Positions 29,040 through 60,200 of a DNA stretch of 64,000 nt are shown piece after piece. This stretch comes from a virus. The notes under the pieces are model-generated. The model had not been told where the DNA came from, did no database searches, and saw nothing but the letters and a program-made list of their open reading frames with translations. The position numbers and the translations under genes were made by a program. The stretch lies in IMG/VR virus record IMGVR_UViG_3300024239_000017; one strand, written 5' to 3'. How positions within the stretch are numbered: the first letter of the stretch is position 1; every line of letters starts with the position of its first letter.

Positions 29040-30305
29040 ATGAATATAAAATTTTATAAAAAACTTCTAAGTTTTAGAAGTCATTCTAAATCTAGAAAGC
29101 AACTAGAATTTAGAGATTGGTTGGAAGCATACATAACTGTAGAATTTCCAGGAGTAACTACTGAAATAGACGATTATGGTAATCTATACGTAACTAAAAA
29201 CACTTCTGAACAAAGATATTATAACTGTGTAGTAGCGCATTTAGATATTAATCAGAAAGTAATTACTGATGATTTCAGTATATTAGTAATCAATAATTAT
29301 ATTGTTGGTATTAATAATGTTGACGGAAAACAAATTGGTTTAGGTCACGACGATAAAGTAGGTGTTTATTTTGCACTTCAAGCGTTAAAAAAGTTTGATA
29401 ATATCAAATGTTTCTTCCCGCTGGATGAAGAAGTAGGATTATTAGGAACTAGAGCGTCCGAAGAAGATTTCTTTAATGACGTAGGATTTTTCTTACAGTT
29501 AGACAGAAGAGGATATTATGATATTTCTCAGTTTACTAATGGTCATGCCACTGTTACATACGATACTAAAAAAGAATTTGAGAAATTATTATGTAAGTAT
29601 AATTTCCATTGGACAAATACGGTATCTACTGATGTTGGAGCATTAATACAGAGACATTTTACACAAGGAGTAAATATTTCATGTGGGTATAACAACGAGC
29701 ATACCAATGATGAGATATTACATGTTTTAAGATATGATAATAGTGAAAAGTTTGCTATGGAGTTATTAAAACTTACCAATAATAAGTTTTATTACATGGA
29801 TATAACTACTACTACATATAACAAACCTGTTGCGAAAACAGTTACGTCTGGATATACGTGTGGGTATTCAAATTCTTCTAACACTAGTAATCAAAATGTA
29901 CAGTCCACTGCTACCCCAACGCTAAAAAAAGATGCGACAAGGAATAAAGAAGAAAAAAAAACAAAGACTACACCATCAATTTTCGAAGAAGGTAAGTCAA
30001 TAACACAGTTAGAAACTTTGGAAGATGAGCTTGAATATTCTATAGAAATGTTATTAGATATAGATATTACTAGTTTAAAAGAGTACAATGAGTTCAAAAA
30101 AATAGTAGCGGATATTCAATCTGAACTTAAAAAAGTACAAGATGAGCATTTAAGAAATACCTTAGTGTATAGATTATATACAAATGTTTGCTCTGTTAAT
30201 GATACCTATTCTTTATCTCCGTATAGAAATTTAGGTACATTACATGATTTGGAAAAAGATCTAGAAACAGATTGGTTGAAAGCACAAGAAGATTATAACA
30301 CTTGA
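29040..30305 (+). CDS. Zn-dependent peptidase/hydrolase (M20/M28-like)
   Basis: AHLD, GHDDKVG, DEEVG, LDRRG, NISCGYNNEH. Confidence 0.8.
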   Translation: MNIKFYKKLLSFRSHSKSRKQLEFRDWLEAYITVEFPGVTTEIDDYGNLYVTKNTSEQRYYNCVVAHLDINQKVITDDFSILVINNYIVGINNVDGKQIGLGHDDKVGVYFALQALKKFDNIKCFFPLDEEVGLLGTRASEEDFFNDVGFFLQLDRRGYYDISQFTNGHATVTYDTKKEFEKLLCKYNFHWTNTVSTDVGALIQRHFTQGVNISCGYNNEHTNDEILHVLRYDNSEKFAMELLKLTNNKFYYMDITTTTYNKPVAKTVTSGYTCGYSNSSNTSNQNVQSTATPTLKKDATRNKEEKKTKTTPSIFEEGKSITQLETLEDELEYSIEMLLDIDITSLKEYNEFKKIVADIQSELKKVQDEHLRNTLVYRLYTNVCSVNDTYSLSPYRNLGTLHDLEKDLETDWLKAQEDYNT

Positions 30306-45843: not shown

Positions 45844-46428
45844 ATGAAGTACAATATTATATACGCAGATCCACCTTGGCAATATGGAAGTAAATCTGCC
45901 GTGAACAATAGTAACGGTAGTGAGATTAAAAAATTATCAGAACACTATAATAGTATGACCATAGATGATATTAAATCTATAGATATAAAAAGTATTACTG
46001 AGGATGACGCTTGTTGCTTTATGTGGGTAACAGATTCACATTTAAAAGAAGGTATAGAAGTTATGGAGTATTGGGGATTCAAATATAAAACAGTAGCTTT
46101 TGTATGGGTAAAAACTACAAACAAAGGTAATTACTGTAAGAATGTTGCACCTTGGACTTTAAAGAGCACAGAGCTTTGTTTATTTGGTACCAAAGGAACC
46201 ATGACAAAATATAAAAAGAATAATTCTATAGAATCTTTAGTTTTTGCAGAAAGATTTAAACATTCTCAGAAACCAGAAGAAGTTAGAAGTAGAATAGAGA
46301 GTTTATTTGGTGATTTACCAAAATTAGAGCTTTTTGCTAGAAGTGGTAGAGATGGATGGACTACGGTAGGCAACGCTATAGATGGAATGGATATTAATGA
46401 AAGTTTAGAATTATTAAAACATGAGTAA
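45844..46428 (+). CDS. MT-A70 family N6-adenine methyltransferase
   Basis: IIYADPPW, WGFKYKT.AFVWVK, HSQKP, KLELFAR. Confidence 0.9.
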   Translation: MKYNIIYADPPWQYGSKSAVNNSNGSEIKKLSEHYNSMTIDDIKSIDIKSITEDDACCFMWVTDSHLKEGIEVMEYWGFKYKTVAFVWVKTTNKGNYCKNVAPWTLKSTELCLFGTKGTMTKYKKNNSIESLVFAERFKHSQKPEEVRSRIESLFGDLPKLELFARSGRDGWTTVGNAIDGMDINESLELLKHE

Positions 46429-46966
46429 ACATTTTTTTAAAATAGACAAAGGAAATCTTATAACAAAGGCATTAGACGGTGAATTTGATGTAATAGCACA
46501 TGGTTGTAATTGTTTTTGTACCCAAAAATCTGGAATAGCTGTAGAAATGGTTAAGAATTTCAAAACAGATACTTTTCCAATGGAGACTCGTGGTAGAGGA
46601 GACATTAATAAACTAGGTCAGATTGATTTTATAAATTTTTATAAAGGAAAAAAAGATTCATTATTTCAAGATGAAGATTGGTATTTTTCATTTGATAGAA
46701 AGGAAGTACCTGATTTAGTAGTAGTAAATGCTTATACACAATATAAATATGGTAATAATCATAGTGATGGTGAAGCTGTACCATTAGATTATAGAGCATT
46801 AGCTTTATGTTTCAAGAAAATAAATCACACTTTTAAAGGTAAGCATATTGGTTTACCTTTAATTGGTGGTGGTTTGGCAGGAGGGGATATGGACATTATT
46901 ATAAAAATAATGAGACAAGAATTTAAAAACTGTGACGTTACATTAGTATTATACGATAAAAATTAA
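46421..46966 (+). CDS. Macrodomain protein (ADP-ribose binding or hydrolase)
   Basis: GNLI, IAHGCNC....SGIA, NAYTQ, PLIGGGLAGG. Confidence 0.85.
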   Translation: MSKHFFKIDKGNLITKALDGEFDVIAHGCNCFCTQKSGIAVEMVKNFKTDTFPMETRGRGDINKLGQIDFINFYKGKKDSLFQDEDWYFSFDRKEVPDLVVVNAYTQYKYGNNHSDGEAVPLDYRALALCFKKINHTFKGKHIGLPLIGGGLAGGDMDIIIKIMRQEFKNCDVTLVLYDKN

Positions 46967-46970
46967 AATT

Positions 46971-48833
46971 ATGGGATTCAGAATTAATTCACTTTATTTA
47001 AGTGATGGATATAAAGTTGGGCATAAAAGCATGTTAGCCCCAGGAACAACAAGATTATATGGTACATGGATACCTAGAAGTTTAAAACATGCCCCTAAAG
47101 GTATTAATAAAATAGTTACATTTTATTATCAAGCGGTTTGGAAAAGATTGAATGACGAATTTAATGAAAACTTTTTCTTTACAGCAGAAAGAAACCTTGC
47201 AATACTTGATGGAGATCAAGATAAATTTGAAGAATTGAAAGTTAATGCAATGGTTTTTGCAAAAGATATGTCCGATTATCTTGGTATGGACTATGACGGA
47301 AATCATTTTGGACAATTATGGGATATAGGTTATTTACCTATAAGAGTTAAAGCATTACCTGAAGGTATAGAAACTCTTCCTAACATTCCTCATATGACTT
47401 TTATCAACACTGTTAAAGGTTTTGGATGGCTTACTCTTTACTTAGAAACTATTGTAAGTAATCAAGCTTGGAAAGGTAGTACTTCTGCTACTATTGCTAA
47501 ATTATATCGTAGACAAGCAGAAGAATGGGTTAATAAAACAGATAAAGCTAATATTGGATTAGTAGATTGGATGTGCCATGATTTCTCTTCTAGAGGATTG
47601 TCTGGCGTAGATGATATGATTACTGTTGGATTGGGACACGCTACTTCTTTTAGAGGTTCTGATACATTAGTAACTATACCTGCTGCAAGATATTATTATA
47701 ATGAAACAGAAGTTTGTATTGGTTCTGTAAATGCATCTGAACACTCTGTATCTACAACTAAAATTTTCACTGTTGGTGAAAAGCAAATGATTATTGACTG
47801 GTTGAAAGAAATTCCAAATGGTATTTTTTCAATGGTTTGTGATACATTTAGTACTTGGCAATTTATTGAATATTTAAAGGATCCTGAGATTAAAGAACTA
47901 GTACTTAATCGTAATGGTAAATTAGTAGTAAGACCTGATTCAGGAGACCCCGCAGATATTATTTGTGGTAAAAAACCTAAGAAAAGAAAATATTTTGCAG
48001 AATATTCTGAAAACGATATAGAAGAATGGTTAGAAATTTCATCAGATGAAATGATAACTAATATATTAAATGATAAAGAATATATCTATGAATTAGATGA
48101 TTTCTTACCATCAATGAGTGGTGGAAGAGATTATACTCCTGATTTTAAAGATGGGCAAACATGTTATATAAAAATAGGTAATAGAGTAATCGCATTTGAA
48201 GTATATACAGGAGAATGTGTAGAAGCTACTTGGGCTCATACTATTAATGAAACAGATATAAAAAATCTGAGAGAAGTAGACCCAATAGAAAAAAATTCAC
48301 CCGAAGCAAAAGGAGTTGTAGAACTTCTTTGGGATATTTTTGGAGGAACAGTTAATGAACAAGGTTATAAAGTATTAGATCCTCATATCGGTGCCATTTA
48401 CGGTGATAGTATTACACCTGAAAGACAAGTAGATATTTATAAAAGACTATCTGAAAAAGGATTTGCATCAACAAATATAGTTTTAGGTATAGGTTCATTT
48501 ACATATGAATATATGACTAGAGATACTTTAGGTTTTGCTGCAAAAGGAGCATGGTTTGAAGTAGAAGGAGAAGGTAAGTGCAATTGTGGTCATACAATAG
48601 ACTGTGACTGTGTAAAACAATATGATATTTATAAAGACCCTATTACAGACGACGGTACTAAAAAATCATTAAAAGGATTTTTACAAGTATACAAAGATGA
48701 ACAAGGAGAATATAGAGTCAAAGAACAATGTACTGTTGAAGAAGAAAATACAGGAGAATTACAATTGATATTTGAAAATGGTAAATTCTTTAATCAAACA
48801 AGTTTAACAGAAATTAGAAATAGATTAAAATAA
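46971..48833 (+). CDS. Nicotinamide phosphoribosyltransferase-like protein (Namat/NadV)
   Basis: SDGYKVGH, HDFSSRG, ASEHSV, VRPDSGDP, IYGDSIT, KDPITDDGTKKS. Confidence 0.92.
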   Translation: MGFRINSLYLSDGYKVGHKSMLAPGTTRLYGTWIPRSLKHAPKGINKIVTFYYQAVWKRLNDEFNENFFFTAERNLAILDGDQDKFEELKVNAMVFAKDMSDYLGMDYDGNHFGQLWDIGYLPIRVKALPEGIETLPNIPHMTFINTVKGFGWLTLYLETIVSNQAWKGSTSATIAKLYRRQAEEWVNKTDKANIGLVDWMCHDFSSRGLSGVDDMITVGLGHATSFRGSDTLVTIPAARYYYNETEVCIGSVNASEHSVSTTKIFTVGEKQMIIDWLKEIPNGIFSMVCDTFSTWQFIEYLKDPEIKELVLNRNGKLVVRPDSGDPADIICGKKPKKRKYFAEYSENDIEEWLEISSDEMITNILNDKEYIYELDDFLPSMSGGRDYTPDFKDGQTCYIKIGNRVIAFEVYTGECVEATWAHTINETDIKNLREVDPIEKNSPEAKGVVELLWDIFGGTVNEQGYKVLDPHIGAIYGDSITPERQVDIYKRLSEKGFASTNIVLGIGSFTYEYMTRDTLGFAAKGAWFEVEGEGKCNCGHTIDCDCVKQYDIYKDPITDDGTKKSLKGFLQVYKDEQGEYRVKEQCTVEEENTGELQLIFENGKFFNQTSLTEIRNRLK

Positions 48834-48834
48834 A

Positions 48835-49779
48835 ATGAAACTTCCTTGGAATAAAGATAATAGTGTGAAATCAGTAAATATACCAGAAGGTGATAAATCT
48901 TTTGGTGATCTTATAATGGATAATTCAATCGAAATAAGGATTATAAATGAATTTTATTACAAAGTCTTAAGTTATCCAGATGGTAGTAAATATGTCAAAG
49001 TTTATAACATTTATAACGATTTAACTTTTAAAATTAATTCTTATGAAGATTTATGGATTTTAAATCAGATACATGACGTGGTTAAAAGTAAAGGTAGGTA
49101 TGTTACTGTAACAATACCTAATTTAATTGACGCTCAAGCAGATAGAAGATTCAATTCAGATGAATCTAGTGGATTAAAATTAGTTTGTAACTTTTTAAAT
49201 GGTCTTTCTAATTTCAATTATAAGATATTTCATCCACATAATCAAGAAGTAGTTGAAGCTTTATTAGATAGAGTTGAAATCATTGATAATTCCGAATTTA
49301 TAAATCAAGTAATATCTATTAAATTGAATGCAAGAATAGATAACTCGGTAAAAGATAATTTAATTTTAATGAGTTCTGATGCAGGAGGATTCAAACCCTT
49401 AATGAAATTAGCTGATAAACTTGCTTGGAGAGGTGAAACTTTCTCAGCGTCTAAATCTAGAAAATATGAAGAGGGTAAATCAAAATTACTTCAACAAATT
49501 GATAGACAGGACTTTAATGGAAAAGATATTCTCATAATAGATGATATATGTGTTTATGGGGGAACATTTAAAGGTCTTGCTAAAATGTTAAGAGAAAGAA
49601 ATTGTGGTAAATTATATTTAGCTGTAAGTCATATGACAGTTGAAAATTTAGGTGAAGATCCTGTAACTGATTACTTTGATATGGTTTATACTACTAATAG
49701 TAAATTTGAATTTTATGATAAACCAGAAAAATATCATGGAGACAGATTAGATAATTTAGAAATAATTAAATTGTTTTAA
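48835..49779 (+). CDS. Ribose-phosphate pyrophosphokinase-like protein (Adps-like)
   Basis: AQADRRF, FHPHN, SDAGG, LIIDDICVYGGTF. Confidence 0.88.
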   Translation: MKLPWNKDNSVKSVNIPEGDKSFGDLIMDNSIEIRIINEFYYKVLSYPDGSKYVKVYNIYNDLTFKINSYEDLWILNQIHDVVKSKGRYVTVTIPNLIDAQADRRFNSDESSGLKLVCNFLNGLSNFNYKIFHPHNQEVVEALLDRVEIIDNSEFINQVISIKLNARIDNSVKDNLILMSSDAGGFKPLMKLADKLAWRGETFSASKSRKYEEGKSKLLQQIDRQDFNGKDILIIDDICVYGGTFKGLAKMLRERNCGKLYLAVSHMTVENLGEDPVTDYFDMVYTTNSKFEFYDKPEKYHGDRLDNLEIIKLF

Positions 49780-49783
49780 TACA

Positions 49784-50110
49784 ATGGAAGAAAATAAAAA
49801 AGAAACACCTGTAGAATGGTTATTTCAACAATTATGGGATACTCCTAAAGATAAATTTACTTGGTATAATATTTTAAATAAAGCTTTAGAAAAAGAAAAA
49901 GAAGAAATTACAAATGCTTTTATTTGGGGAGAAACTAATGAATACCAAAAAGAACCAAAAATAGCTAAATCTTTACAACCTAAAAGATTTAAAAGAAATT
50001 CTTACAAAACTTATACTAGAATTAAAAATAAGTCTTTTAGAAGATTTTTAAATGCCAATTTTGAAGTAGGTAAAGAAATTTTAAAGAAAAGATATGGTTG
50101 GGAATTTTAA
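49784..50110 (+). CDS. Hypothetical protein
   Basis: TPVEWL...ALEKEKEEI. Confidence 0.6.
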   Translation: MEENKKETPVEWLFQQLWDTPKDKFTWYNILNKALEKEKEEITNAFIWGETNEYQKEPKIAKSLQPKRFKRNSYKTYTRIKNKSFRRFLNANFEVGKEILKKRYGWEF

Positions 50111-50122
50111 TATTAATATAAT

Positions 50123-50347
50123 ATGTCAAACAAGAAAATTTTAGAATTAATCCTAAATACAGCAGGATTTACTATGGAAAATTATGAACTTATTAAAGAT
50201 GGTTCAATGGTAGGTTATGAATTTGAAGCACATATTAATGGGCAATGTCAATTCCAAGTAGCAACAGATAGTTTTAAAGATGCTATTAGAGAAACTATAG
50301 AAGGTATATATTTTACAGACGACCTTACTTTTGATTATATATTTTAA
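50123..50347 (+). CDS. Hypothetical protein
   Basis: ORF. Confidence 0.6.
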   Translation: MSNKKILELILNTAGFTMENYELIKDGSMVGYEFEAHINGQCQFQVATDSFKDAIRETIEGIYFTDDLTFDYIF

Positions 50348-50366
50348 AAATAATAATTATAATATT

Positions 50367-50783
50367 ATGATACAAGAATTAGTAAAGCAATGGGAAGAAA
50401 ATAAACATGAACTTGAAAATTATTTCAGAACAACTAGACAAGAAGAGTATGCGTCAAGTTATAAACAAATATTGAAAAAAATATTTGAATTATGTTTATT
50501 GAAAGCAGATAATTACACAAATTTTGATTTAGATAAAATGACTGTAATTGACGACGGTGATTATCAAGGTACACAAATTTTTATTATACCTAAAAACACC
50601 TATCAACCAAGTGTAGGAGATTATGTAATGACAAATACTTATTATGGTAGTTGTTCAGGTTGTGACACACTTCAGGCAATCTGTGAGTATGAAAATGGTC
50701 TACCAACAGATGATCAAGTAAAAGGTTATATGACTCTTGCTTTACATTTAGTTCAAAAACTAAAATGGTTAGATAAAAATTAA
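50367..50783 (+). CDS. Conserved phage protein
   Basis: IDDGDYQGT...YGSCSGCDTL. Confidence 0.7.
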   Translation: MIQELVKQWEENKHELENYFRTTRQEEYASSYKQILKKIFELCLLKADNYTNFDLDKMTVIDDGDYQGTQIFIIPKNTYQPSVGDYVMTNTYYGSCSGCDTLQAICEYENGLPTDDQVKGYMTLALHLVQKLKWLDKN

Positions 50784-50822
50784 TTATTAAATTTAATTTT
50801 CAAAAATGGGGTCGCATCCAAA

Positions 50823-51276
50823 ATGAAACAAATAAAAGCAATACCAAAATTAGTTTTCGATAAACACTTTACTAATAAGGAGTTTGAATATTATGATTAC
50901 TCTTGTTTTATTTCAATACTTGATATTGATAATAATGAGCAAAAGTTTGATAAATCAATAGACAATTTTCTACAAGTAAAAATATGGGATATTGAAGAAG
51001 ATCTGTTTGAAAATGGTGAGTTAAAATATGAAAAACCAAATGATAAAGAACTAAAAAAAAATAGTTGATTTTATAAATAAACATAAGGATAAATCAGTAT
51101 TTATAGTTCATTGTTCTGCTGGGATTTCTCGAAGCGGTGCGGTTGCAATTTTTTTGTATGATAAATTTTTGTCAGAAATAGACAAAGAACAATTCAGAAG
51201 AGAAAATAAATACATAAGACCAAACCTTTATATTTTAAACAGATTGAAGTATTTAGATATTGTCGTTTTAGAATGA
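50823..51276 (+). pseudogene. Protein-tyrosine-phosphatase-like gene (CX5R) split by a +1 frameshift in an A9 run; cassette 1
   Basis: Second frame 51061-51276 reads IVDFINKHKDKSVFIVHCSAGISRSGAVA... Confidence 0.8.
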
Positions 51277-51277
51277 C

Positions 51278-51372
51278 GACTAACGGTTCGGGTATATATT
51301 CAGTACCCTTGCACCGAACTTAAAAATTTAATATAAACTTTAATAGGGTATTGTATATATACTTTGTTAGCA
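51278..51372 (+). repeat. attC-like site 1
   Basis: GACTAAC..GTATATATTCAGTACCCT..AGGGTATTGTATATATAC..GTTAGCA. Confidence 0.78.
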
Positions 51373-51385
51373 AACGTTAATTATT

Positions 51386-51634
51386 ATGGATGAAGTTAAA
51401 ATGTTTTTATTTGCAAGGTGGATTGCTACTTGCTATGCTGATACACATTTAGATAGTAAAATGAAATGTAAGCACGATGAAGGATTTAAAGAGTCAGAAG
51501 CAATCTCAGTTTTAAATAGAGAAACAGGATATTGGTATAAGGAACAATTAAAACATTTTAACGATGTCGTGTATCCGAACTACATTGAAAACGGAACAGT
51601 TGAAAATACGAAACAGTTCTTTAATGTTTGCTAA
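51386..51634 (+). CDS. Cassette 2 hypothetical protein
   Basis: Stop codon is the TAA of the next TAAC box. Confidence 0.7.
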   Translation: MDEVKMFLFARWIATCYADTHLDSKMKCKHDEGFKESEAISVLNRETGYWYKEQLKHFNDVVYPNYIENGTVENTKQFFNVC

Positions 51635-51759
51635 CGATTTGGTGTTTCTGAAGAACGGGCTACGGAAACTGAACTGACTAAATATAACTGAAATAACAAC
51701 TAAAATCGCAATAACAATAGATGTTTTTAAACCCGTTTTTTAGAAACATATTGTTAGCA
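51629..51759 (+). repeat. attC-like site 2
   Basis: TGCTAAC..TGTTTCTGAAGAACGGG..CCCGTTTTTTAGAAACA..GTTAGCA. Confidence 0.78.
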
Positions 51760-51776
51760 GCAGTAACACTAATTAT

Positions 51777-52064
51777 ATGGCACTTGATTTAGAAGAAATG
51801 AAAAAAAATATAGACGAGTTTTTAGCAAATATAACACAAGAGGAAATTAACAAATATTTTCCTCCTGATACTCGTCCAAAAGGTTGGTTAAGTATTGAAG
51901 AATATTTACCAATGATGTGTGCAATTGACATTGTACAGGGATATACACTTTATAAAGTGAAAGACAAGAATGGTAACGAATTTGAAAGTGCTGTATCAGA
52001 CCATAATAATTGGTATTACTACGCAAAAGAAGAAGGTATTACTCACTGGTGGAATGGAGAGTAG
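51777..52064 (+). CDS. Cassette 3 hypothetical protein (DUF551-like ends)
   Basis: WLSIEEYLP...ITHW. Confidence 0.7.
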   Translation: MALDLEEMKKNIDEFLANITQEEINKYFPPDTRPKGWLSIEEYLPMMCAIDIVQGYTLYKVKDKNGNEFESAVSDHNNWYYYAKEEGITHWWNGE

Positions 52065-52071
52065 TTATTGC

Positions 52072-52203
52072 TGCTAACGTTTTGCGTGTATAAGAAGTGG
52101 CGTAGAACGTGCCGAAGCATTACAAAAATTAAATAATTATAAATTAATAAATAACCAATCCAAAACTGCCGATAGTAGCCATTTTTTATACACGCTGTTA
52201 TCT
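52072..52203 (+). repeat. attC-like site 3
   Basis: TGCTAAC..GCGTGTATAAGAAGTGGC..GCCATTTTTTATACACGC..GTTATCT. Confidence 0.78.
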
Positions 52204-52233
52204 TTCAGTTGCGGGTTTTAAAAACAGAATATT

Positions 52234-52467
52234 ATGAACATTCAAGACGAATTACAGAAAATCCACCATCAGTATGGAACAAGCGAAAAAGCTAATTATG
52301 AAATACAAAAACTATTTGACAAACAAATTAGAGAAAGTGATTTTTTAGCGTGTCATTTTACTAAACATATTTTAAATATGCCAAATAATAAATTAGAGAG
52401 TAAAACAGTAAAAGAACATTACTCAGAGTTTAAAAAACGTTATTTAGAAGAAAATAGTAGCAATTGA
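52234..52467 (+). CDS. Cassette 4 hypothetical protein
   Basis: ORF filling the cassette. Confidence 0.65.
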   Translation: MNIQDELQKIHHQYGTSEKANYEIQKLFDKQIRESDFLACHFTKHILNMPNNKLESKTVKEHYSEFKKRYLEENSSN

Positions 52468-52597
52468 AGATAACGTTCGAGCATTGGCGAAGTGCAGACT
52501 AAGGATGCCGAACCTGAAAGGTTCAAGTCCGTGGCAAACGAAGGCAAATGCGACTATTAATAACTCAACTCTGCATTTTGCCAATGCTGTGTTATAC
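52468..52597 (+). repeat. attC-like site 4
   Basis: AGATAAC..AGCATTGGCGAAGTGCAGA..TCTGCATTTTGCCAATGCT..GTTATAC. Confidence 0.78.
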
Positions 52598-52667
52598 GAA
52601 GAAGTTTTTTAGCAAAGGCAATACGGCTGGAACAGACGTAAATATTAACAAAGAAATTATATAAATA

Positions 52668-52925
52668 ATGAAAACAATTACAGGATTTATTTTCGGATTA
52701 GTAATGGCAATTTTAATTTCAGCCACTACCATCAATACCAGTTTAATTACAACAAAACCAAATACTCCAAAATCTGTTTTAGTGAAAGGATTTGGATATA
52801 ATGAAGAAGAAGAAATTCAGCAATACGTTTCAGCTTGTACCAAAGACGGTTATGTTGTAAAATCGCTTAATGGTGGTGGTGGAAGTGGAGGAAGTTGGTG
52901 GTTTTTAGTGATGGAAAAATATTAA
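52668..52925 (+). CDS. Cassette 5 hypothetical protein with N-terminal TM segment
   Basis: Paralog of 39571-39792. Confidence 0.7.
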   Translation: MKTITGFIFGLVMAILISATTINTSLITTKPNTPKSVLVKGFGYNEEEEIQQYVSACTKDGYVVKSLNGGGGSGGSWWFLVMEKY

Positions 52926-53011
52926 AACACAACATTATAAAAAAAAGCGATGGCAAAAAACTTTTTTGTATAACACAAAAATAGACGCAATAAAAGTATT
53001 ACAAAAACACG

Positions 53012-53197
53012 ATGAAGCCTTTGTACACAGAAGTTTTTACGCTCAAAATTTCAAAGCAACAAAAACAGACTTTAGAGAAGTTGAAATCAAGAAATATAAA
53101 GGTTTCATCTTTTGTAAGAAAAGCAATTGCGGAGAAAATAGAGCGTGATTATGAAAATCTAAAAGAAAAACCTAAAAAAGAATATTGTCCTTTTTAA
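53012..53197 (+). CDS. Ribbon-helix-helix-like DNA-binding protein
   Basis: FTLKIS...LEKL....VSSFVRKAIAEKI. Confidence 0.6.
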   Translation: MKPLYTEVFTLKISKQQKQTLEKLKSRNIKVSSFVRKAIAEKIERDYENLKEKPKKEYCPF

Positions 53198-53235
53198 TTT
53201 AAAACTTCCCACTAGTAAGTAAGTGGAACTATATA

Positions 53236-53529
53236 ATGAACAAAAAAGAATTTTATAATGACAATGATAAAGCATTTTTTGATGCTGGATTTGAAAGAAC
53301 AGTTGATGATGAACTATTTCTATACTTTAAACAATTAATTTCTGAAGATGAAATTGAAAATCATGATTTAGAAGAGGAAGAAGTTCCAACACTTTTATTT
53401 GGAACCAATGGAATAAATAGTGGTTTTGCTATATATACAGGAACACATTTCATTTGGATTGATTCTGAAACACCTAAAGATGCAAGTGATTTTGCTGATA
53501 AAATATTATCATTTGACACAATATTTTGA
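53236..53529 (+). CDS. Hypothetical acidic protein
   Basis: ORF. Confidence 0.6.
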   Translation: MNKKEFYNDNDKAFFDAGFERTVDDELFLYFKQLISEDEIENHDLEEEEVPTLLFGTNGINSGFAIYTGTHFIWIDSETPKDASDFADKILSFDTIF

Positions 53530-53531
53530 AT

Positions 53532-54302
53532 ATGAAAAGATTTAAGTTATATAAAGTTGGGGGATGTGTAAGAGATTCTATATTAGGAGAATCTCCAAAA
53601 GACATTGATTTTGTTTTTGAATTTACACAGGATTTTCTAGATAGTGTTATAGGAAATGCCTCTGCAAACGTTTTATATATTACAATGAATAAAATGTTAG
53701 AACTAGAAGGTTTTACTATATTACAGGATTTACCAGATTATTTTACAACTAAAGCAAGATTTCCTAAAGGACATAAATATGAAAATTTAGTTGCAGATTT
53801 TGTAATGTGTAGAAAAGAAATTTATACAGATTCATATAGTAGAAGACCTATTGTTTCTCCTGGTACCATATATGACGATTTAGAGAGAAGAGATTTTAGA
53901 ATGAATGCTATTGCAGAAGATGAAGAAGGTAATATTATAGACCCTTTTAACGGTGTAGAAGATATTAAAAATAGGATAATAAGTTGTCCTAAAAATGCAA
54001 AACATTCTTTTTCAGAAGACCATCTTAGAATGCTAAGAGCAATAAGATTTTGTATAACTAAAGATTTTACTCTCGATGACGAGGTATGGGAAGCTTTATG
54101 TAATAAGAACTTTTGGACTAATTTACAATATCATGTTTCTATAGAAAGGATAAAAGACGAGTTATACAAGTGTTTTAAACATGATACTATTAGAACTATG
54201 AGATTGCTAATAGATATTGAATTTTTTGCAGAAATACTTATTTTAGAAAATATTTTCCCTGAAAAATTATGGTTAGAACCAACATTAAAAAGTAGAAAAT
54301 AA
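53532..54302 (+). CDS. cca: tRNA nucleotidyltransferase (class II CCA-adding enzyme)
   Basis: VGGCVRD..LG..PKDID, DLERRDF.MNAIA, ED.LRMLRAIRF, SIERI..E. Confidence 0.9.
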   Translation: MKRFKLYKVGGCVRDSILGESPKDIDFVFEFTQDFLDSVIGNASANVLYITMNKMLELEGFTILQDLPDYFTTKARFPKGHKYENLVADFVMCRKEIYTDSYSRRPIVSPGTIYDDLERRDFRMNAIAEDEEGNIIDPFNGVEDIKNRIISCPKNAKHSFSEDHLRMLRAIRFCITKDFTLDDEVWEALCNKNFWTNLQYHVSIERIKDELYKCFKHDTIRTMRLLIDIEFFAEILILENIFPEKLWLEPTLKSRK

Positions 54303-54901
54303 TGAACAATTTTTACAAATTAAAAAGTTATGTAGATAATCTTGAAGTAGATGATTTTCTATATATAGAAATTATGATTCGCAATAAAGATCAAAAAGAT
54401 AATATTGGTAAAAATAATAGAATTATAAAATCTTACAAAGTAGATATTTTAACAGATTTGAATAGATTAGAAGAAGATATTAAAAAGTTATGTAAAACTT
54501 TTAATGCTAGAGCATACATATATTTATCTCCTAGAAATAATGAAAAAGTATTTTCAGAAATGTTATTGTTAATGGCTAATTATAATAAGATGAAAAATTA
54601 TGATTCAATAAATAGAGTTTTTGATAAAGCATTAAAAAGTATAAAAGGTTCAATGAAACATTTTATAATTGATATAGACACTAAAGATCTACATTATATA
54701 ACAAATGTTAGAGAAGAAATAATAAATAGCGCTAAGTTAGATTCTATAGAAGCACCACTAATAGATATTTTTGAAACAAACAGTGGTTATCATATAATAA
54801 CTAAACCTTTTAATTATTACAAAACTTTTAAAGATAAATTTCCAGATATAGAAATACATAAAAATAATCCTACTTTACTTTATTATGATGGTAAAGTATA
54901 A
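54302..54901 (+). CDS. AEP (primase-polymerase)-like protein
   Basis: FIIDID and ETNSGYHII motifs. Confidence 0.45.
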   Translation: MNNFYKLKSYVDNLEVDDFLYIEIMIRNKDQKDNIGKNNRIIKSYKVDILTDLNRLEEDIKKLCKTFNARAYIYLSPRNNEKVFSEMLLLMANYNKMKNYDSINRVFDKALKSIKGSMKHFIIDIDTKDLHYITNVREEIINSAKLDSIEAPLIDIFETNSGYHIITKPFNYYKTFKDKFPDIEIHKNNPTLLYYDGKV

Positions 54902-54911
54902 AAAATAAATT

Positions 54912-56270
54912 ATGATAACAGGAAAAGATTTAATAGCATTAGGATATATTCCTAATAAGCTATTTGGGGACGCAATAAAATATATAAATACATATGAATT
55001 ATCTACAGAAGAAATCAAATCTTTTCTAGATGAATTCTTTAAACCAACTCCTACTTTGGAGCCTTTTAAAACTCCTGTAGATTATATTCTTAATATTGAA
55101 GTAGAAAATCAAGACGAAGTAAACAACCTTAGTGCCATACACAATACTATGCAAGTCTTAATGAAGACTCCTACAGTGTTAACAGGTGTAATAATGCCTG
55201 ACGCTTGTCCTACAGGAGAGCCTGGTCAGATACCTGTAGGTGGTGTTGTAGTAACAGAAAATGCTATACACCCATCTATGCACTCAGCAGATGTATGTTG
55301 TTCAGTTATGACTTCTGATTTAGGTAAAATTGATCCTAAAGAAGTATTAGATATAGCATTTGCAACCACACATTTTGGTGCAGGCGGTAGAAAAGAACAT
55401 GGTGGTTGGGGAGATTTACTATATGATAATAATTACTTAGTAGAAAAAATACTAGGTAATTACTATACAAAAGATTATATAGAAAAAGCAGCAAAACATT
55501 TAGGAACTCAAGGTGATGGAAATCACTTTTTATTCGTAGGTATTTCTGAAAAAACAGGTAATACTCATATAGTAACACATCATGGTTCTAGAGGATTTGG
55601 TGCGGCAGTATATAAAAAAGGAATGGACACAGCAGAAAAGTATAGAAAAGAGCTTTCTCCAAATACTTTAAAGAAAAATGCTTGGATTCCTTATGATAGT
55701 GTAGAAGGTAAATTATATTGGGAAGCTCTTCAAATAGTAAGAGAATGGACTAAACTTAATCATGAATCACTTCATAATAGAATTATAAATAAATTAAAAA
55801 TTCAATATGAAAATAGATTTTGGAACGAGCATAATTTTGTTTTCAAAGACGGTAATAAATTCTATCACGCTAAAGGTGCTACACCATTAGAAGATAAATT
55901 TGTACCTGATTCACAAAATGGATTAAGATTAATACCTTTGAATATGTCACAACCTGTTTTGGTTGTAAAAGGTGAAGCTACAGATACAAATTTAGGATTT
56001 GCACCTCATGGTGCTGGTAGAAATGTATCAAGAGCAGAACATCATAGAAGACACGCTAACAAAACTGACGAACAAGTTTTTAAAGAAGAAACAAAAGGAC
56101 TTGATGTTAGATTTTATACAGGTAAAATAGATATATCTGAGTTACCTAGTGCATATAAAAATGCAGAAAGTGTACAAAGACAAATAGAAAAATTTGGACT
56201 AGGTACTGTTGTGGATAGAATAATGCCTTATGGTTGTATAATGGCAGGAAAACAAGAAAAATTTTATTAA
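54912..56270 (+). CDS. rtcB: RtcB RNA ligase
   Basis: MPDAC, DVCC, GNHF, HHGSRG, HNF, HGAGR, ELPSAYK. Confidence 0.92.
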   Translation: MITGKDLIALGYIPNKLFGDAIKYINTYELSTEEIKSFLDEFFKPTPTLEPFKTPVDYILNIEVENQDEVNNLSAIHNTMQVLMKTPTVLTGVIMPDACPTGEPGQIPVGGVVVTENAIHPSMHSADVCCSVMTSDLGKIDPKEVLDIAFATTHFGAGGRKEHGGWGDLLYDNNYLVEKILGNYYTKDYIEKAAKHLGTQGDGNHFLFVGISEKTGNTHIVTHHGSRGFGAAVYKKGMDTAEKYRKELSPNTLKKNAWIPYDSVEGKLYWEALQIVREWTKLNHESLHNRIINKLKIQYENRFWNEHNFVFKDGNKFYHAKGATPLEDKFVPDSQNGLRLIPLNMSQPVLVVKGEATDTNLGFAPHGAGRNVSRAEHHRRHANKTDEQVFKEETKGLDVRFYTGKIDISELPSAYKNAESVQRQIEKFGLGTVVDRIMPYGCIMAGKQEKFY

Positions 56271-56271
56271 A

Positions 56272-56571
56272 ATGGATAATATATTTAATGTCTTTATAGG
56301 AATAGGTGTAACTGTAACATTTTTAGGAATGTTAATCACTTATTTAACTTATGATGAGCCCATGTATGTGGTAGAATACAATCACTGTTTATTAGGTAAT
56401 AATGATAGTGATAATAATAAAATACGAGTTAGAGTAAGAAAAGAAGGATTTTTTACTACTAAAATATATGACGAGTATATTTATTATTCTACATCGACAG
56501 AAGGTAAAATTATAATGGGTATGCTTAAAGACTGTTTAGAAAATGATAAACCAATACCTTTAAATTATTAA
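56272..56571 (+). CDS. Membrane-anchored hypothetical protein
   Basis: N-terminal TM segment. Confidence 0.6.
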   Translation: MDNIFNVFIGIGVTVTFLGMLITYLTYDEPMYVVEYNHCLLGNNDSDNNKIRVRVRKEGFFTTKIYDEYIYYSTSTEGKIIMGMLKDCLENDKPIPLNY

Positions 56572-56574
56572 AAT

Positions 56575-56892
56575 ATGAATATGGAATATATATCAACAAT
56601 GAACTTCACAAGTTCAAAAGGAAAAAAGTATTACAGAGGAACTGTAATTAATAACAGTGAGTATTTATTACTTAATTATAACGATAGACGTATGTTTAAG
56701 GTAAAAGAAAGTTTCAATAACGATTCAAAAAATAACGATAATTATTTAAATGGGACTACAGGATCTTATTATGATTATTCTAGTCCATCTTATGACAATT
56801 CAAGTAGTAGTAATAACGATTCTTCATCTTCATTTGACGGCTTCGGTGGTGGAGGCGACTTTGGAGGTGGTGGAGCAAGCTCAGATTGGTAG
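56575..56892 (+). CDS. Hypothetical protein with a Gly-rich tail
   Basis: GFGGGGDFGGGGASSDW. Confidence 0.65.
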   Translation: MNMEYISTMNFTSSKGKKYYRGTVINNSEYLLLNYNDRRMFKVKESFNNDSKNNDNYLNGTTGSYYDYSSPSYDNSSSSNNDSSSSFDGFGGGGDFGGGGASSDW

Positions 56893-57141
56893 ATATGATT
56901 GATTACATTATAATATTTTTACTGTACATATACCTATTGTAATAGTGTATTTTTCATTTAGAAGGATGTATATAAAATCTGATATTACTAGCAATAGTAT
57001 AATATTAGATATAATACTTATATTTTTACCTATTGTTAATTTATTCTTATCTTTAATTGTAATAGGAACCTATTTAATGAACTTAGATTTTTCAAATATT
57101 AATAAAAACTTTTAAAGATTTTTTACTTTAAAAGATAAATT

Positions 57142-57184
57142 AAAATCCCCCAGATTCCTTAATTGGAGTTTGGGGGATTTTTTT
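57142..57184. terminator. Bidirectional terminator at the convergence of + and - transcription
   Basis: AAAATCCCCCAGATTCC-TTAATT-GGAGTTTGGGGGATTTTTT. Confidence 0.85.
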
Positions 57185-57243
57185 GTTTCTACTCTTCGCT
57201 AATTTTTTAAGATGGACTGAGGAGACGTTTAATGTTTCCACAC

Positions 57244-60200
57244 TCAATAAAACTTTTTGCTTAAACTGTTTAAAGCATTTCTTATTTCTCCACCTCTCTG
57301 TGCATAATTTGTATTATTGTTAGAATTATTTTTAGCAATATTATTCATCATCCATATTATGTTCTGTTTGAATTTTTCCTCACCTTTACGAGTATCCTCG
57401 TCATTATCCTTCATATAATCAGGTTGATTATAACTATCACTTCCTTTAGTGGCATTTATAAATTCGTATACATCAGGATACATTTCTCTTAATAATGAAT
57501 TACCACCACCTTGCTTATTTAACTCTTTAAATTTATTAAGATGTTCTTCTGTAAAATCTTCTTTGGAAGCATCATAAATTCCTTGATTTTTAAGTTCTTG
57601 TCTAAAACTTTGCATTCTAGCTAAATACTCTGTAGGATTAGAAGTATAATCAGTTACTATAGGTCTATCATAATCTGTACCATTAACTTTGAATCTAATA
57701 TTATTGAATTTTTTAGATATAAAAGAATCACTAAATGGTTCATAGTTATCAGGATTATCAAATTCTTGCCCCGCTCTAGTAAAAGCATCATCTTCTTTTA
57801 AATACTTTTCAGTATCTGTACTTATAGGTAACATTCTATCTATAAATTCACGTTCTTTTTTGAAGTATGGATCCAATAAGTTTTTTGCCAATCCTTCACT
57901 ATTCATTCCGTCAGGTCTATTACCCCTAGTTCTATTGATAATATCTATCAATGTTTTTGTAGGCATGTCTACTGTACCGTCAGTAATAGCATGTGATATT
58001 TCATGGGTAAAAACACTAGGATTAAGTTTCGAACCCTCTTTTGTAACTTCTATATTACCTGCTTTTGTTGGATGTATTCTATAATTATATTTTTCATCAT
58101 TTCTATAATCATTTTCTCTTGCATAAGTTACACCTAAAGTACCCTTTTCATTATTGATATTATCTACTATACTGATATTTTTTGAAGCATTTTGAAAATT
58201 ATTCTTTCTATTCTCATATAATCTATTAATAGTTTCTTCATCAGCATTAGGATATTCTTTTTTAAGCCTTTCTAAATACTTCGGTGAATTAATGTATTCT
58301 TTAAACCAAGCTACCTGTTGATCTTTATTCATTGGCTTCTTACCTCCTAATTGTGCATACCACATATTGTTTTCTGTTTTTCTATTATCTACTATATTAT
58401 TCAATAACCAAACAGCATCGTCTTGAGAGTTTAATATATTGAGTAATTCTCCTGAATTAGCTTCTATTAAAGGTTTATTGTTATTTTCTCCTGGTTTTTT
58501 ATAATTATTTAAAAACTTAGTTAAATGTTCTTTAGTTATAGGAGATTTATAAGGATCTACAATACCACTATCTTTAAGTTCTTTTCTTAGAACATTCAAT
58601 CTGGCATGTACTTCTGTAGGATTACTTAGGTAACTTCCTGAATCATCTCTAACCCTAGATAAAATATCCTCTACATCATTTCTGAGTAATAATTGATTTG
58701 CTCCTGTAGATTGATGAGTACCTTCATGTAATATAACATTTTCTGGAGCCATTCTTCTAGTTACAATATTGCCATATTTACTATTTGGACTAGTATAAGA
58801 AGTTCCTTGAAGGTCTTTGTTATTAAATCTTTCTCCCCTTTTTCTTGTATATGAATTTGTCGATTTTAATAAATCTTCTGCTGTAGATATTTCCAAATTC
58901 TGTCCACTAATTCTATCTAATCTAGTAGAAAGATTATCTACACCACTTTGCCCTTCTCTTTTAAAGGCTATTTTATTAGCCATAGGAGATTCTAACCATC
59001 CTTTCAAATAACCTATTTCGTCTGTCTTTAACATGGTTTGGGGTTTCAATACCCCATTAGTGTCAGAATATTCCCATTTTGATTCTGTAATCCCTCCTTT
59101 CTGAAATTTTGTAAGTAATTCATTTAAAGAATTTCTAACATTTCCTCCTAATTTTTTTCTAGTAACAGTAATTTCAGGGTATTTAATACCTCTATCGTCT
59201 ATAGAAGCCTTAGGTAATTTCTTAACACTTTTAGAATTTATACCATCTATTAATGAGTTTATCTCTTTTAATATAAGCTTCTCATCTAAATTAGCTAAAT
59301 CTGGAAATCCTGCACTATTTAAATACTTATACCCGTGATAATTAACGTCTATCATGTCATTTGTAATACCCCTGTCCACTAATTTAAGTGTCATAGGATA
59401 ACTATCGCTAGATAGAGAATTCGCTGGTAAAAAAACTTTTCCTTTTTCTGATGAATTTACTTTATCGTATGCTTTTTTAAGCTTAGCCATTGGATTTAAA
59501 TTCTCTCTTTTATACAAAGTTGGCATTAATTCTTCATCGTATTCTAAAGGCTTTCTTTCTATGAAAGGTGAAACTTTTTTATTAATATTTGATAATAAGC
59601 TATTACTATTAGTTTCAGTAGTAGGAACTCTTAAATTTCTAAATATAGGAGTTATATGTTCGACTAAATCGTCTTCGGAATATAAAGGTATTCTTGTATC
59701 ACTAATTATTTCTTCTACATTTTGTTTACTTATAGGTTGTTCTTTTAATGCTTTAAGTCTACTATTTAAACTATTTTTATCAAAACCTGTAAGTAATATG
59801 AATTGGTCATCATTTAAATGAGAAGAATTTTTAAATACGTCTTCTATTAACTTTGCATCACTATATAATTCACCTGAATTAACAATACTTCCTACATTTC
59901 TAACTGTAGATAATAATTTCTTTTCTCCATGTGAAAGACTCTCAGGTTTATTCAAAAATTTAAACTCTAAAGATTTTACTAAATTATTTAATTCTTCTTT
60001 AGTACCTACTTTATTTTTAAATAGTTTTGCTAAATCGTCAGATACTCCTGCGGCTGGAACTACTCCTAATAAATTTACAGCACCGCTTATCGTGTGCTTT
60101 CCAGCACCTTTAAAATTCCCTTCTATTAACTTTTCAGGGATTGTAACTACGTCTTTTGCTCCCTCTATTCCAGAATCAATCCATGATAATGGGTTAGCTA

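Follow-up and report, generated by a model that had tools for sequence, protein, structure and literature searches.

Fixed wobble pairs mark attC-like hairpin sites in a phage cassette array and in Bacteroidota and are probably read by a non-integron recombinase

The 64,000-nucleotide stretch analysed here (the window) comes from the virus record IMGVR_UViG_3300024239_000017, is AT-rich phage DNA with a G+C content of 28.5%, and carries, between positions 51,278 and 52,597, a short array of small genes and long hairpins framed by TAAC and GTTA. The question raised by this locus is whether the two odd pairs that interrupt each hairpin are incidental or mark a class of recombination site of its own. 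For integrons the accepted view is that extrahelical bases, bound by a domain specific to IntI, govern both the choice of strand and the recognition of the site. We think it likely that the hairpins of the window are attC-like recombination sites, active as folded single strands, of an integron-like cassette system of Bacteroidota and phages, in which wobble pairs guide a recombinase other than the integron integrase.

Both strands of all 64 kb were scanned for AAC...GTT around an imperfect stem, which returned exactly four sites, all on the + strand:

51281..51369, + strand: site 1 (short, 89-nt class), 18-bp stem 51292-51309 / 51345-51362, 35-nt loop, spacers of 7 and 3 nt; odd pairs T:T 51300/51354 and G:T 51303/51351
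51632..51756, + strand: site 2, 17-bp stem 51643-51659 / 51732-51748, 72-nt loop, spacers of 7 and 4 nt; odd pairs G:T 51650/51741 and G:T 51653/51738
52075..52200, + strand: site 3, 18-bp stem 52084-52101 / 52178-52195, 76-nt loop, spacers of 5 and 1 nt; odd pairs G:T 52094/52185 and G:T 52097/52182
52471..52594, + strand: site 4, 19-bp stem 52480-52498 / 52570-52588, 71-nt loop, spacers of 5 and 2 nt; odd pairs G:T 52489/52579 and G:T 52492/52576

Each site reads, in order, TAAC-G, spacer, stem arm of 17-19 bp, loop, stem arm, spacer and T-GTTA, with TAAC and GTTA present in 4/4 cases. Each contains exactly two non-Watson-Crick pairs, 3 bp apart, whose distances from the G of GTTA are exactly 12 and 15 nt in all four; the stems of sites 2-4 are perfect except for GAAG opposite TTTT, in which both odd pairs are G:T. 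The scan confirmed what the original prediction, made from the sequence before this analysis, had described, namely four sites with two mismatches 3 bp apart and, in site 1, a T:T and a G:T at the same spacing. The prediction had further held that extrahelical bases are absent, which is right for single-base bulges; it overlooked 3-4 surplus unpaired bases on the TAAC-side arm, where the spacer exceeds that of the GTTA side in every site (7/3, 7/4, 5/1 and 5/2). This surplus forms one block, and the stems are ungapped.

A covariance model, R1, was built from a seed alignment that included sites 2-4 and left out site 1, and was run with filters off; the default filters missed the AT-rich sites of the window. 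On the + strand it scored sites 1 to 4 at 53.7, 72.2, 78.8 and 71.1 bits, with E-values of 5e-17 to 3e-11 (3e-11 for site 1), compared with at most 12 bits on the - strand. Site 1 is 80% identical over 111 nt to sites in three other loci (L014, L059 and L018), and the stem type of site 3 recurs in five (L022, L054, L061, L085 and L095). The observation made in the window is thus real and far beyond chance. Megablast of 46000-58000 against GenBank phages returned distant nicotinate phosphoribosyltransferase matches only. No published name was found for this site class, which is defined here by R1.

The spread of the signature was assessed with a pattern search in which only TAACG, GAAG, TTTT and TGTTA (18 bases) were fixed. 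At least 120 viral contigs gave matches, as did at least 120 genome contigs, and the genome contigs listed are overwhelmingly from Bacteroidota (Chitinophagaceae, Flavobacteriales, Sphingobacteriales and Cytophagales). A proper stem, which the pattern did not demand, was present in 123 of the 144 viral matches listed, and the lengths of these stemmed matches cluster at 119-120 and 124-127 nt. Over the family, site lengths fall into classes near 48, 88, 125 and 190 nt, with site 1 in the 88-nt class, and the stem types are limited in number and recur across contigs. Single Bacteroidota genomes hold arrays of about 40 to 90 sites.

Geometry was then counted in three less selected sets, namely 146 neighbouring sites that do not match the pattern, bacterial arrays found with R1, and the R1-found sites of four phage arrays; few of the R1-found sites had come from the pattern search. 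The apical odd pair, 15 nt from GTT, is G:T in 110/133 of the pattern-negative sites, in 60/63 of the bacterial and in 74/76 of the phage sites, whereas the basal pair, 12 nt from GTT, varies (G:C 59, G:T 34, T:A 27 and A:T 15 in the pattern-negative sites; G:C 36 and G:T 25 in the bacterial; G:C 32 and G:T 31 in the phage arrays). At the basal position G is kept while T and C alternate opposite it, so that the double-wobble variant seen in the window makes up roughly 40% of the family. The pair that closes TAAC-G against T-GTTA is G:T in 56/60 bacterial and 72/73 phage sites, TAACG and TGTTA are found in 119/146 and 123/146 of the pattern-negative sites, and the difference between the TAAC- and GTTA-side spacers is 3 or 4 nt in nearly all family sites. 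AAC and GTT are invariant in 70/70 aligned sites, although the scanner required both.

Alignment of these 70 diverse sites revealed extensive covariation, with 95.9% of stem cells paired and 401 double changes, compared with 115 ± 8 in shuffles; controls with slid partners pair at 40-47%. The R1-found bacterial and phage arrays gave a similar result. Stem positions other than the apical one each take two to five pair types. The apical G:T is therefore a near-invariant mark in an otherwise freely varying stem. The original prediction had proposed a distinct att class, open to refutation if the mismatch positions were not conserved in a larger alignment. They proved conserved over hundreds of covarying sites devoid of the single-base bulges of classical attC, and the proposal of a distinct class stands; its rule of two mismatches has to be narrowed, since only the apical G:T is near-universal and the basal pair is often G:C.

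The DNA between the sites is organised as cassettes, of which the window holds four bodies:

51366..51635, + strand: body after site 1, open reading frame (ORF) 51386-51634 of 82 aa; ends GTTAGCAAACG... / ...ATGTTTGCTAAC pair over 15 bp, with a G:T at position 11
51753..52078, + strand: body after site 2, ORF 51777-52064 of 95 aa; ends pair over 15 bp, with a G:T at position 11
52197..52474, + strand: body after site 3, ORF 52234-52467 of 77 aa; ends pair with a 1-nt offset, with a G:T at position 11/12
52591..52977, + strand: body after site 4, ORF 52668-52925 of 85 aa; ends pair over 20 bp (52591 with 52955-52974)

The 20-bp pairing of the last body includes G:T pairs at positions 8 and 11 (GAAG opposite TTTT), and this body closes with an orphan GTATAAC box (TAAC 52971-52974) that is followed by no hairpin; this is likely to be the recombinase-proximal end of the array, though no recombinase follows. 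At the other end, no upstream partner was found for the 5' flank of site 1, and the array is therefore taken to start there. For the four cassette proteins, Pfam gave no match and the fetched loci no homologue. For 38 cassettes of bacterial arrays, the 15 nt that follow GTT were compared with the last 15 nt up to and including the AAC of the next site. Positions 4-9 are paired in 87-92% of cases across the body, as opposed to 26-74% between the two flanks of the same site, and position 11 of this outer helix is never Watson-Crick (G:T in 27, C:T in 9 and T:T in 2). The G:T noted earlier at position 11-12 of the cassette ends of the window is thus an instance of a family rule, valid in 38/38 bacterial cassettes.

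A recombinase gene accompanies such arrays elsewhere. Four bacterial genomes have a gene for a tyrosine recombinase near a site or an array, directly past the T-GTTA end in the two clearest; for one of the four genomes the positions are as follows:

Arundinibacter roseus (G007), contig C41: array 325731-337225, recombinase 323084-323890

Three large phage contigs, with arrays of 11 to 44 sites, likewise carry a recombinase of 266-298 aa directly past the T-GTTA end. Pairwise identity among the array-linked recombinases is 39-49%, with one more distant at 31-42%, and their nearest solved structure is XerA (4a8e; E 4e-37); the alignment to VchIntIA (2a3v) falls into two stretches. Among five array-bearing bacterial genomes there were no matches above the cut-off of the integron-integrase model TIGR02249, and the matches to the IntI profile are split into positions 2-179 and 238-315, skipping the IntI-specific region (~180-238). 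The earlier suggestion of a different recombinase is thus borne out in that the arrays adjoin a Xer/XerA-like tyrosine recombinase without the IntI-specific insertion. A tblastn search of the 64-kb window with seven family recombinases gave nothing below E 0.03, and past the orphan TAAC box come unrelated genes; the array of the window is an orphan, its recombinase being absent from the window.

Which strand is read was approached through gene orientation, cassette junctions and folding. On phage contigs the genes lie on the strand that bears the G:T pairs (the G:T strand) in 106 cases and on the opposite strand in 4, and the window agrees (3 and 0), whereas the relation is inverted in bacteria, both in the model-found arrays (2 on the G:T strand and 41 opposite) and in the scanner-found genome contigs (5 and 34). 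The G:T strand is therefore non-coding in bacteria, as in integrons, and coding in phages, including this one. Despite the opposite gene orientation, the recombinase is at the same (T-GTTA) end in phage and bacterial arrays (window 51281-52977; loci L255-L270). The wobbles are placed with respect to the core and the recombinase end and not with respect to transcription. Given the opposite orientation, the phage and host cassette pools look separated.

Junctions were located by comparing 264 pairs of similar hairpins in different contigs: the body downstream is the only one shared in 6, the one upstream in 0, and both are shared in 3; in the 6 downstream-only pairs the similarity starts at TAAC or a few bases from it. 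In 14 of 20 non-syntenic pairs of cassette-protein homologues, against 6, similarity was higher between the sites 5' of the body. Because the hairpins travel with the body on their 3' side, the junction lies at the TAAC box, that is, at the 5'-AAC of the G:T strand. Phage cassettes thus consist of a site followed by its gene on the coding strand, which reverses the cassette of gene plus downstream hairpin that we had considered and that the original prediction had assumed (6 to 0 and 14 to 6). The G:T strand also folds better, by 1.9 kcal/mol on average and in 225/274 sites. This placement agrees with the published properties of the classical bottom strand, in whose 5'-AAC-3' IntI cuts (PMC5027507), in which G:T mispairs are enriched (1.24 versus 0.39 per site; PMC5027507) and in which the base after AAC is G in most sites (PMC2727003). 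Judged by junction side, the G after AAC, G:T enrichment and folding, the G:T strand would be the counterpart of the recombined, bottom strand of classical attC. The prediction that the top strand is used would accordingly hold for the phage, where the G:T strand is the coding strand and the junctions lie at its 5'-AAC box.

Several points weigh against this reading and against its extension to the window. The strand cut would be the G:T strand on the basis of the integron analogy and of a modest junction count, the 6 nucleotide-level cases all being from phage contigs and falling into 4 independent groups. The analogy is moreover imperfect: on the G:T strand the 3-4 surplus bases belong to the AAC arm, the arm opposite to that of the classical extrahelical bases, which is the arrangement of the non-recombined strand of classical attC (PMC5027507). 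The sites used for the geometry counts were chosen for having stems, which inflates the pairing percentages but not the identity of the non-Watson-Crick pairs. Finally, no relatives were found that are close enough for gain or loss of cassettes to be seen at the locus of the window, those of the neighbouring CCA-adding enzyme among viral and metagenome contigs being at most 65% identical and either too short or without sites. Since such relatives and a recombinase in the window are both missing, cassette activity in this phage is only putative.

In the strongest of the alternatives, the complementary strand (TAAC-A ... C-GTTA) folds and its C-A mismatches flip out bases that stand in for the extrahelical ones. 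On that strand the surplus bases would lie opposite 5'-AAC, like the extrahelical bases of the classical bottom strand (PMC5027507), C-A mismatches open more easily than G:T wobbles, and outer position 11 is a true mismatch on both strands (C:T) in 24% of the cassettes, so that a helix defect and not a wobble is conceivably what is needed. We nevertheless regard it as unlikely, since the junctions fall at the other box by 6 to 0 and 14 to 6, it is the G:T strand that resembles the classical bottom strand in its G after AAC and its enrichment in G:T, and the complementary strand folds 1.9 kcal/mol worse. Furthermore, the apical position tolerates only G:T, and a need for any defect would admit other mismatches.

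An explanation at the level of RNA, which the original prediction had also raised, would have the hairpins act as mRNA stem-loops whose G-U wobbles terminate, process or stabilise the transcripts of small phage genes. It gains from the G:T strand being the sense strand in the window and in 106/110 phage cassettes, and from the folds of the G:T strand of sites 2 and 4, which are better than those of shuffles. In bacterial arrays with the same G:T positions, however, the genes are on the other strand (41/43 and 34/39), so that their transcripts would carry C-A mismatches, and the attachment of the wobbles to core and recombinase end also argues against it. The fixed distance to the TAAC/GTTA core, the cassette-end pairing and the adjacent recombinase are features of DNA recombination, and a scan of 50500-53500 against Rfam gave only two chance-level matches, with E above 1. 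As the main role of the hairpins an action in RNA is thus quite improbable, while a secondary effect of this kind may exist in phages.

Still less probable, in our judgement, is that these are ordinary attC sites of a classical integron integrase whose mismatches are incidental. Core (AAC/GTT), array layout and the logic of the cassette ends all resemble those of integrons, and phages, a Polaribacter phage among them, have been reported to carry clustered attC predictions (PMC9892861). However, none of the five array-bearing bacterial genomes exceeded the cut-off of the IntI model and the matches lack the IntI insertion, single-base bulges are absent, the apical G:T is kept in 60/63 bacterial and 74/76 phage sites, and integron surveys find essentially no complete integrons in Bacteroidetes apart from Salinibacter (PMC9024848). 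Published assay data bear on this as well. P12002L_attC1, from the Polaribacter phage P12002L, coincides with a weak, short-form R1 match (30000-30064, minus strand) and, of six phage sites, was alone in not being recombined by IntI1 (PMC9892861); it is a marginal member of the family, its short stem stops before the wobble positions, and the result is a single negative one. Lastly, inheritance of functionless G:T pairs from one ancestral repeat, which the recurrence of few stem types in many sites across contigs might suggest, is the explanation to which we give the least credence, since everywhere else in the stem two to five pair types are seen, with compensatory changes in the hundreds, and the apical pair is held at G:T. 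It is so in phage and in bacterial arrays alike, and the recombinases of these arrays share only 39-49% identity.

Returning to the reading in which the G:T strand of attC-like sites is folded and cut, the geometry suggests a mechanism along the following lines. Two successive bodies, one with its end and the other with its start, would form an outer helix of about 15 bp containing the TAAC/GTTA core and the obligatory non-Watson-Crick position 11. A closing G:T (TAAC-G / T-GTTA) would be followed by an asymmetric internal loop with the 3-4 surplus bases on the TAAC arm, then by an inner helix of 17-22 bp with the fixed G:T at 15 nt from GTT and the conserved G at 12 nt from GTT, opposite T or C, and by a terminal loop assembled from repeat units of about 19 nt. 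The strand bearing the G:T wobbles would fold, and a Xer-like tyrosine recombinase without the IntI domain for extrahelical bases would cut it in 5'-AAC-3'. The wobbles would make the two strands unequal, keeping one hairpin continuous while C-A mismatches break the other, and together with the lopsided loop they would replace the classical bulged bases and set the register for the second recombinase subunit. The fixed wobbles thus probably tell the non-integron recombinase which strand to fold and cut. The four site-plus-gene cassettes of the window would constitute an orphan array, whose movement would need a recombinase from elsewhere.

The terminal loops contain a motif, CCGAA, that the original prediction had made part of the signature. 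It lies 4, 10 and 9 nt past the left arm in sites 1, 3 and 4 (51314, 52112 and 52508), and site 2 has CGGAA at 51663 instead; as the + strand of the window holds only 16 copies in 64 kb, its presence in three of the four sites is not due to chance. The placement is therefore genuine, but the motif is no signature of the class, being found early in the loop in only 20/274 long family sites. In these 274 sites, CGAA is about threefold enriched in loops (63 versus 22 ± 5) and CAC.AA is found 264 times, compared with 42 ± 6 in shuffles. A loop of about 72 nt carries four direct copies of a ~14-nt motif close to AAGCACAAAnTTnA, near loop positions 8, 27, 45 and 64, that is, with a period of about 18.7 nt (for example at 52102-52177 of the window and in columns ~40-118 of alignment A1). 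The first copy is often CGAAGCAC, the CCGAAGCATTACAAAA of site 3 is that motif, and CCGAA is a local form of this first of the four periodic motifs. The site-length classes of about 48, 88, 125 and 190 nt fit loops made of units of about 19 nt. The copies may be binding sites for accessory proteins or for the recombinase; some read AAATGTTAAA, which we take to be reminiscent of a Xer-binding half-site. Two other ideas were discarded. A pseudoknot between the spacer (GGTTCGG, GTTCG) and CCGAAC of the loop, suggested by sites 1 and 4, fails in sites 2 and 3, and a role of the repeats as Bacteroidota promoter boxes does not fit, the period of about 19 nt being at odds with the usual -33/-7 spacing.

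Set beside known systems, the family shares much with classical attC (59-base elements such as VCR, the Vibrio cholerae repeats, and attCaadA7; Bouvier 2009, PMC2727003; Nivina 2016, PMC5027507). In both, the AAC/GTT core is invariant and lies in inverted R'' and R' boxes, the hairpins are imperfect, with stems free to covary, and are recognised by their shape, and the R box is formed by a cassette's own ends, R'' complementing the R' half at the start of the same cassette and not the R' next to it in the array. Both also have co-oriented arrays of small cassettes, a G after AAC with G:T mispairs that favour the presumed recombined strand, and an unpaired spacer between two protein-binding helices. 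Classical attC has two to three single extrahelical bases on the R''-L'' arm (a G in L'' and a T 6-8 nt away; PMC2727003), and the sites of the window have none. The family differs, in addition, by its G:T pairs at fixed positions and lopsided spacer with the surplus on the AAC arm, by a longer R helix, of about 15 bp, in which position 11 is always mismatched, by a loop of periodic ~19-nt motifs where the classical loop is free, by a partner recombinase without the IntI insertion and, in phages, by a site that precedes its gene on the coding strand.

Phage CALINs (clusters of attC sites lacking integron integrases) likewise are hairpin-bounded arrays of small genes in lytic-type phages with no recombinase nearby (PMC9892861). 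Published CALINs are defined by the classical attC model, and that study does not include the wobble signature, the Xer-like partner or the spread in Bacteroidota; more broadly, no description of the wobble signature, the lopsided spacer or a Xer-like partner for such Bacteroidota arrays was found in the literature. A third comparison is with Xer recombination of folded single-stranded DNA, as in CTX-type phages at dif, and with archaeal XerA, which have in common with the family an enzyme of Xer type without the IntI domain. In CTX-type integration the Xer substrate is a single-stranded DNA hairpin, and its imperfections are important; the phage uses the XerCD of its host and one site to integrate its whole genome. 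The present family differs in having a dedicated recombinase linked to arrays of tens of cassettes and a distinct site grammar.

Around the array of the window are genes for a nicotinate phosphoribosyltransferase-family protein, a phosphoribosyltransferase-domain protein, a nucleotidyltransferase of the polyA-polymerase/CCA type and RtcB. Directly upstream of site 1, at 50823-51276, lies a dual-specificity/tyrosine phosphatase-like gene with an HCSAGISRSG motif and a weak match to Pfam DSPc, which appears split in two frames at an A-run near 51055-51068 and is either a frameshifted pseudogene or a slippery site. Just past the orphan TAAC box, a small ORF (53012-53197) matches DUF6290 at 24.9 bits, under the Pfam cut-off of 27, and has homologues of 39-51% identity in nine fetched phage loci with family sites, so that the cassette-like region may reach beyond the last recognisable site.

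Other genomes provided two further observations. In the cultured phage P12002L (L271), seven weak family-model matches between 29990 and 39260 on the minus strand flank DNA methyltransferase genes, and the published P12002L_attC2 (29175-29243, + strand) is not a family-model match and may be unrelated to the family. A Chitinophagaceae bin (G009) holds about 40 co-oriented sites over 95 kb (C8:1700-95200, loci L255-L259), in an array that probably continues over a contig break into C7:1-12429 (L261), which ends at the recombinase gene; it is of superintegron size, in a phylum said to be without integrons.

As to what the family means, the IntI domain and the bulged bases are both absent and fixed wobbles are present instead, which would make it a natural second solution to the problem of strand choice, one open to direct test through a handful of single-base changes. 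The system helps to explain the near-absence of integrons from surveys of Bacteroidota, since the standard attC and IntI models misfit its sites and enzymes. Lytic-type phages, for their part, can carry orphan cassette arrays of this integron-like system of Bacteroidota. Taken furthest, and here we see the chances as evenly balanced, the family would represent a second folded-DNA machinery of gene capture beside integrons, with a positional code of wobbles and mismatches (outer position 11, the closing pair and inner positions 12 and 15) and a lopsided spacer that are read by a small Xer-like enzyme, and which phages run back to front relative to their hosts, so that orientation would keep the two cassette pools apart.

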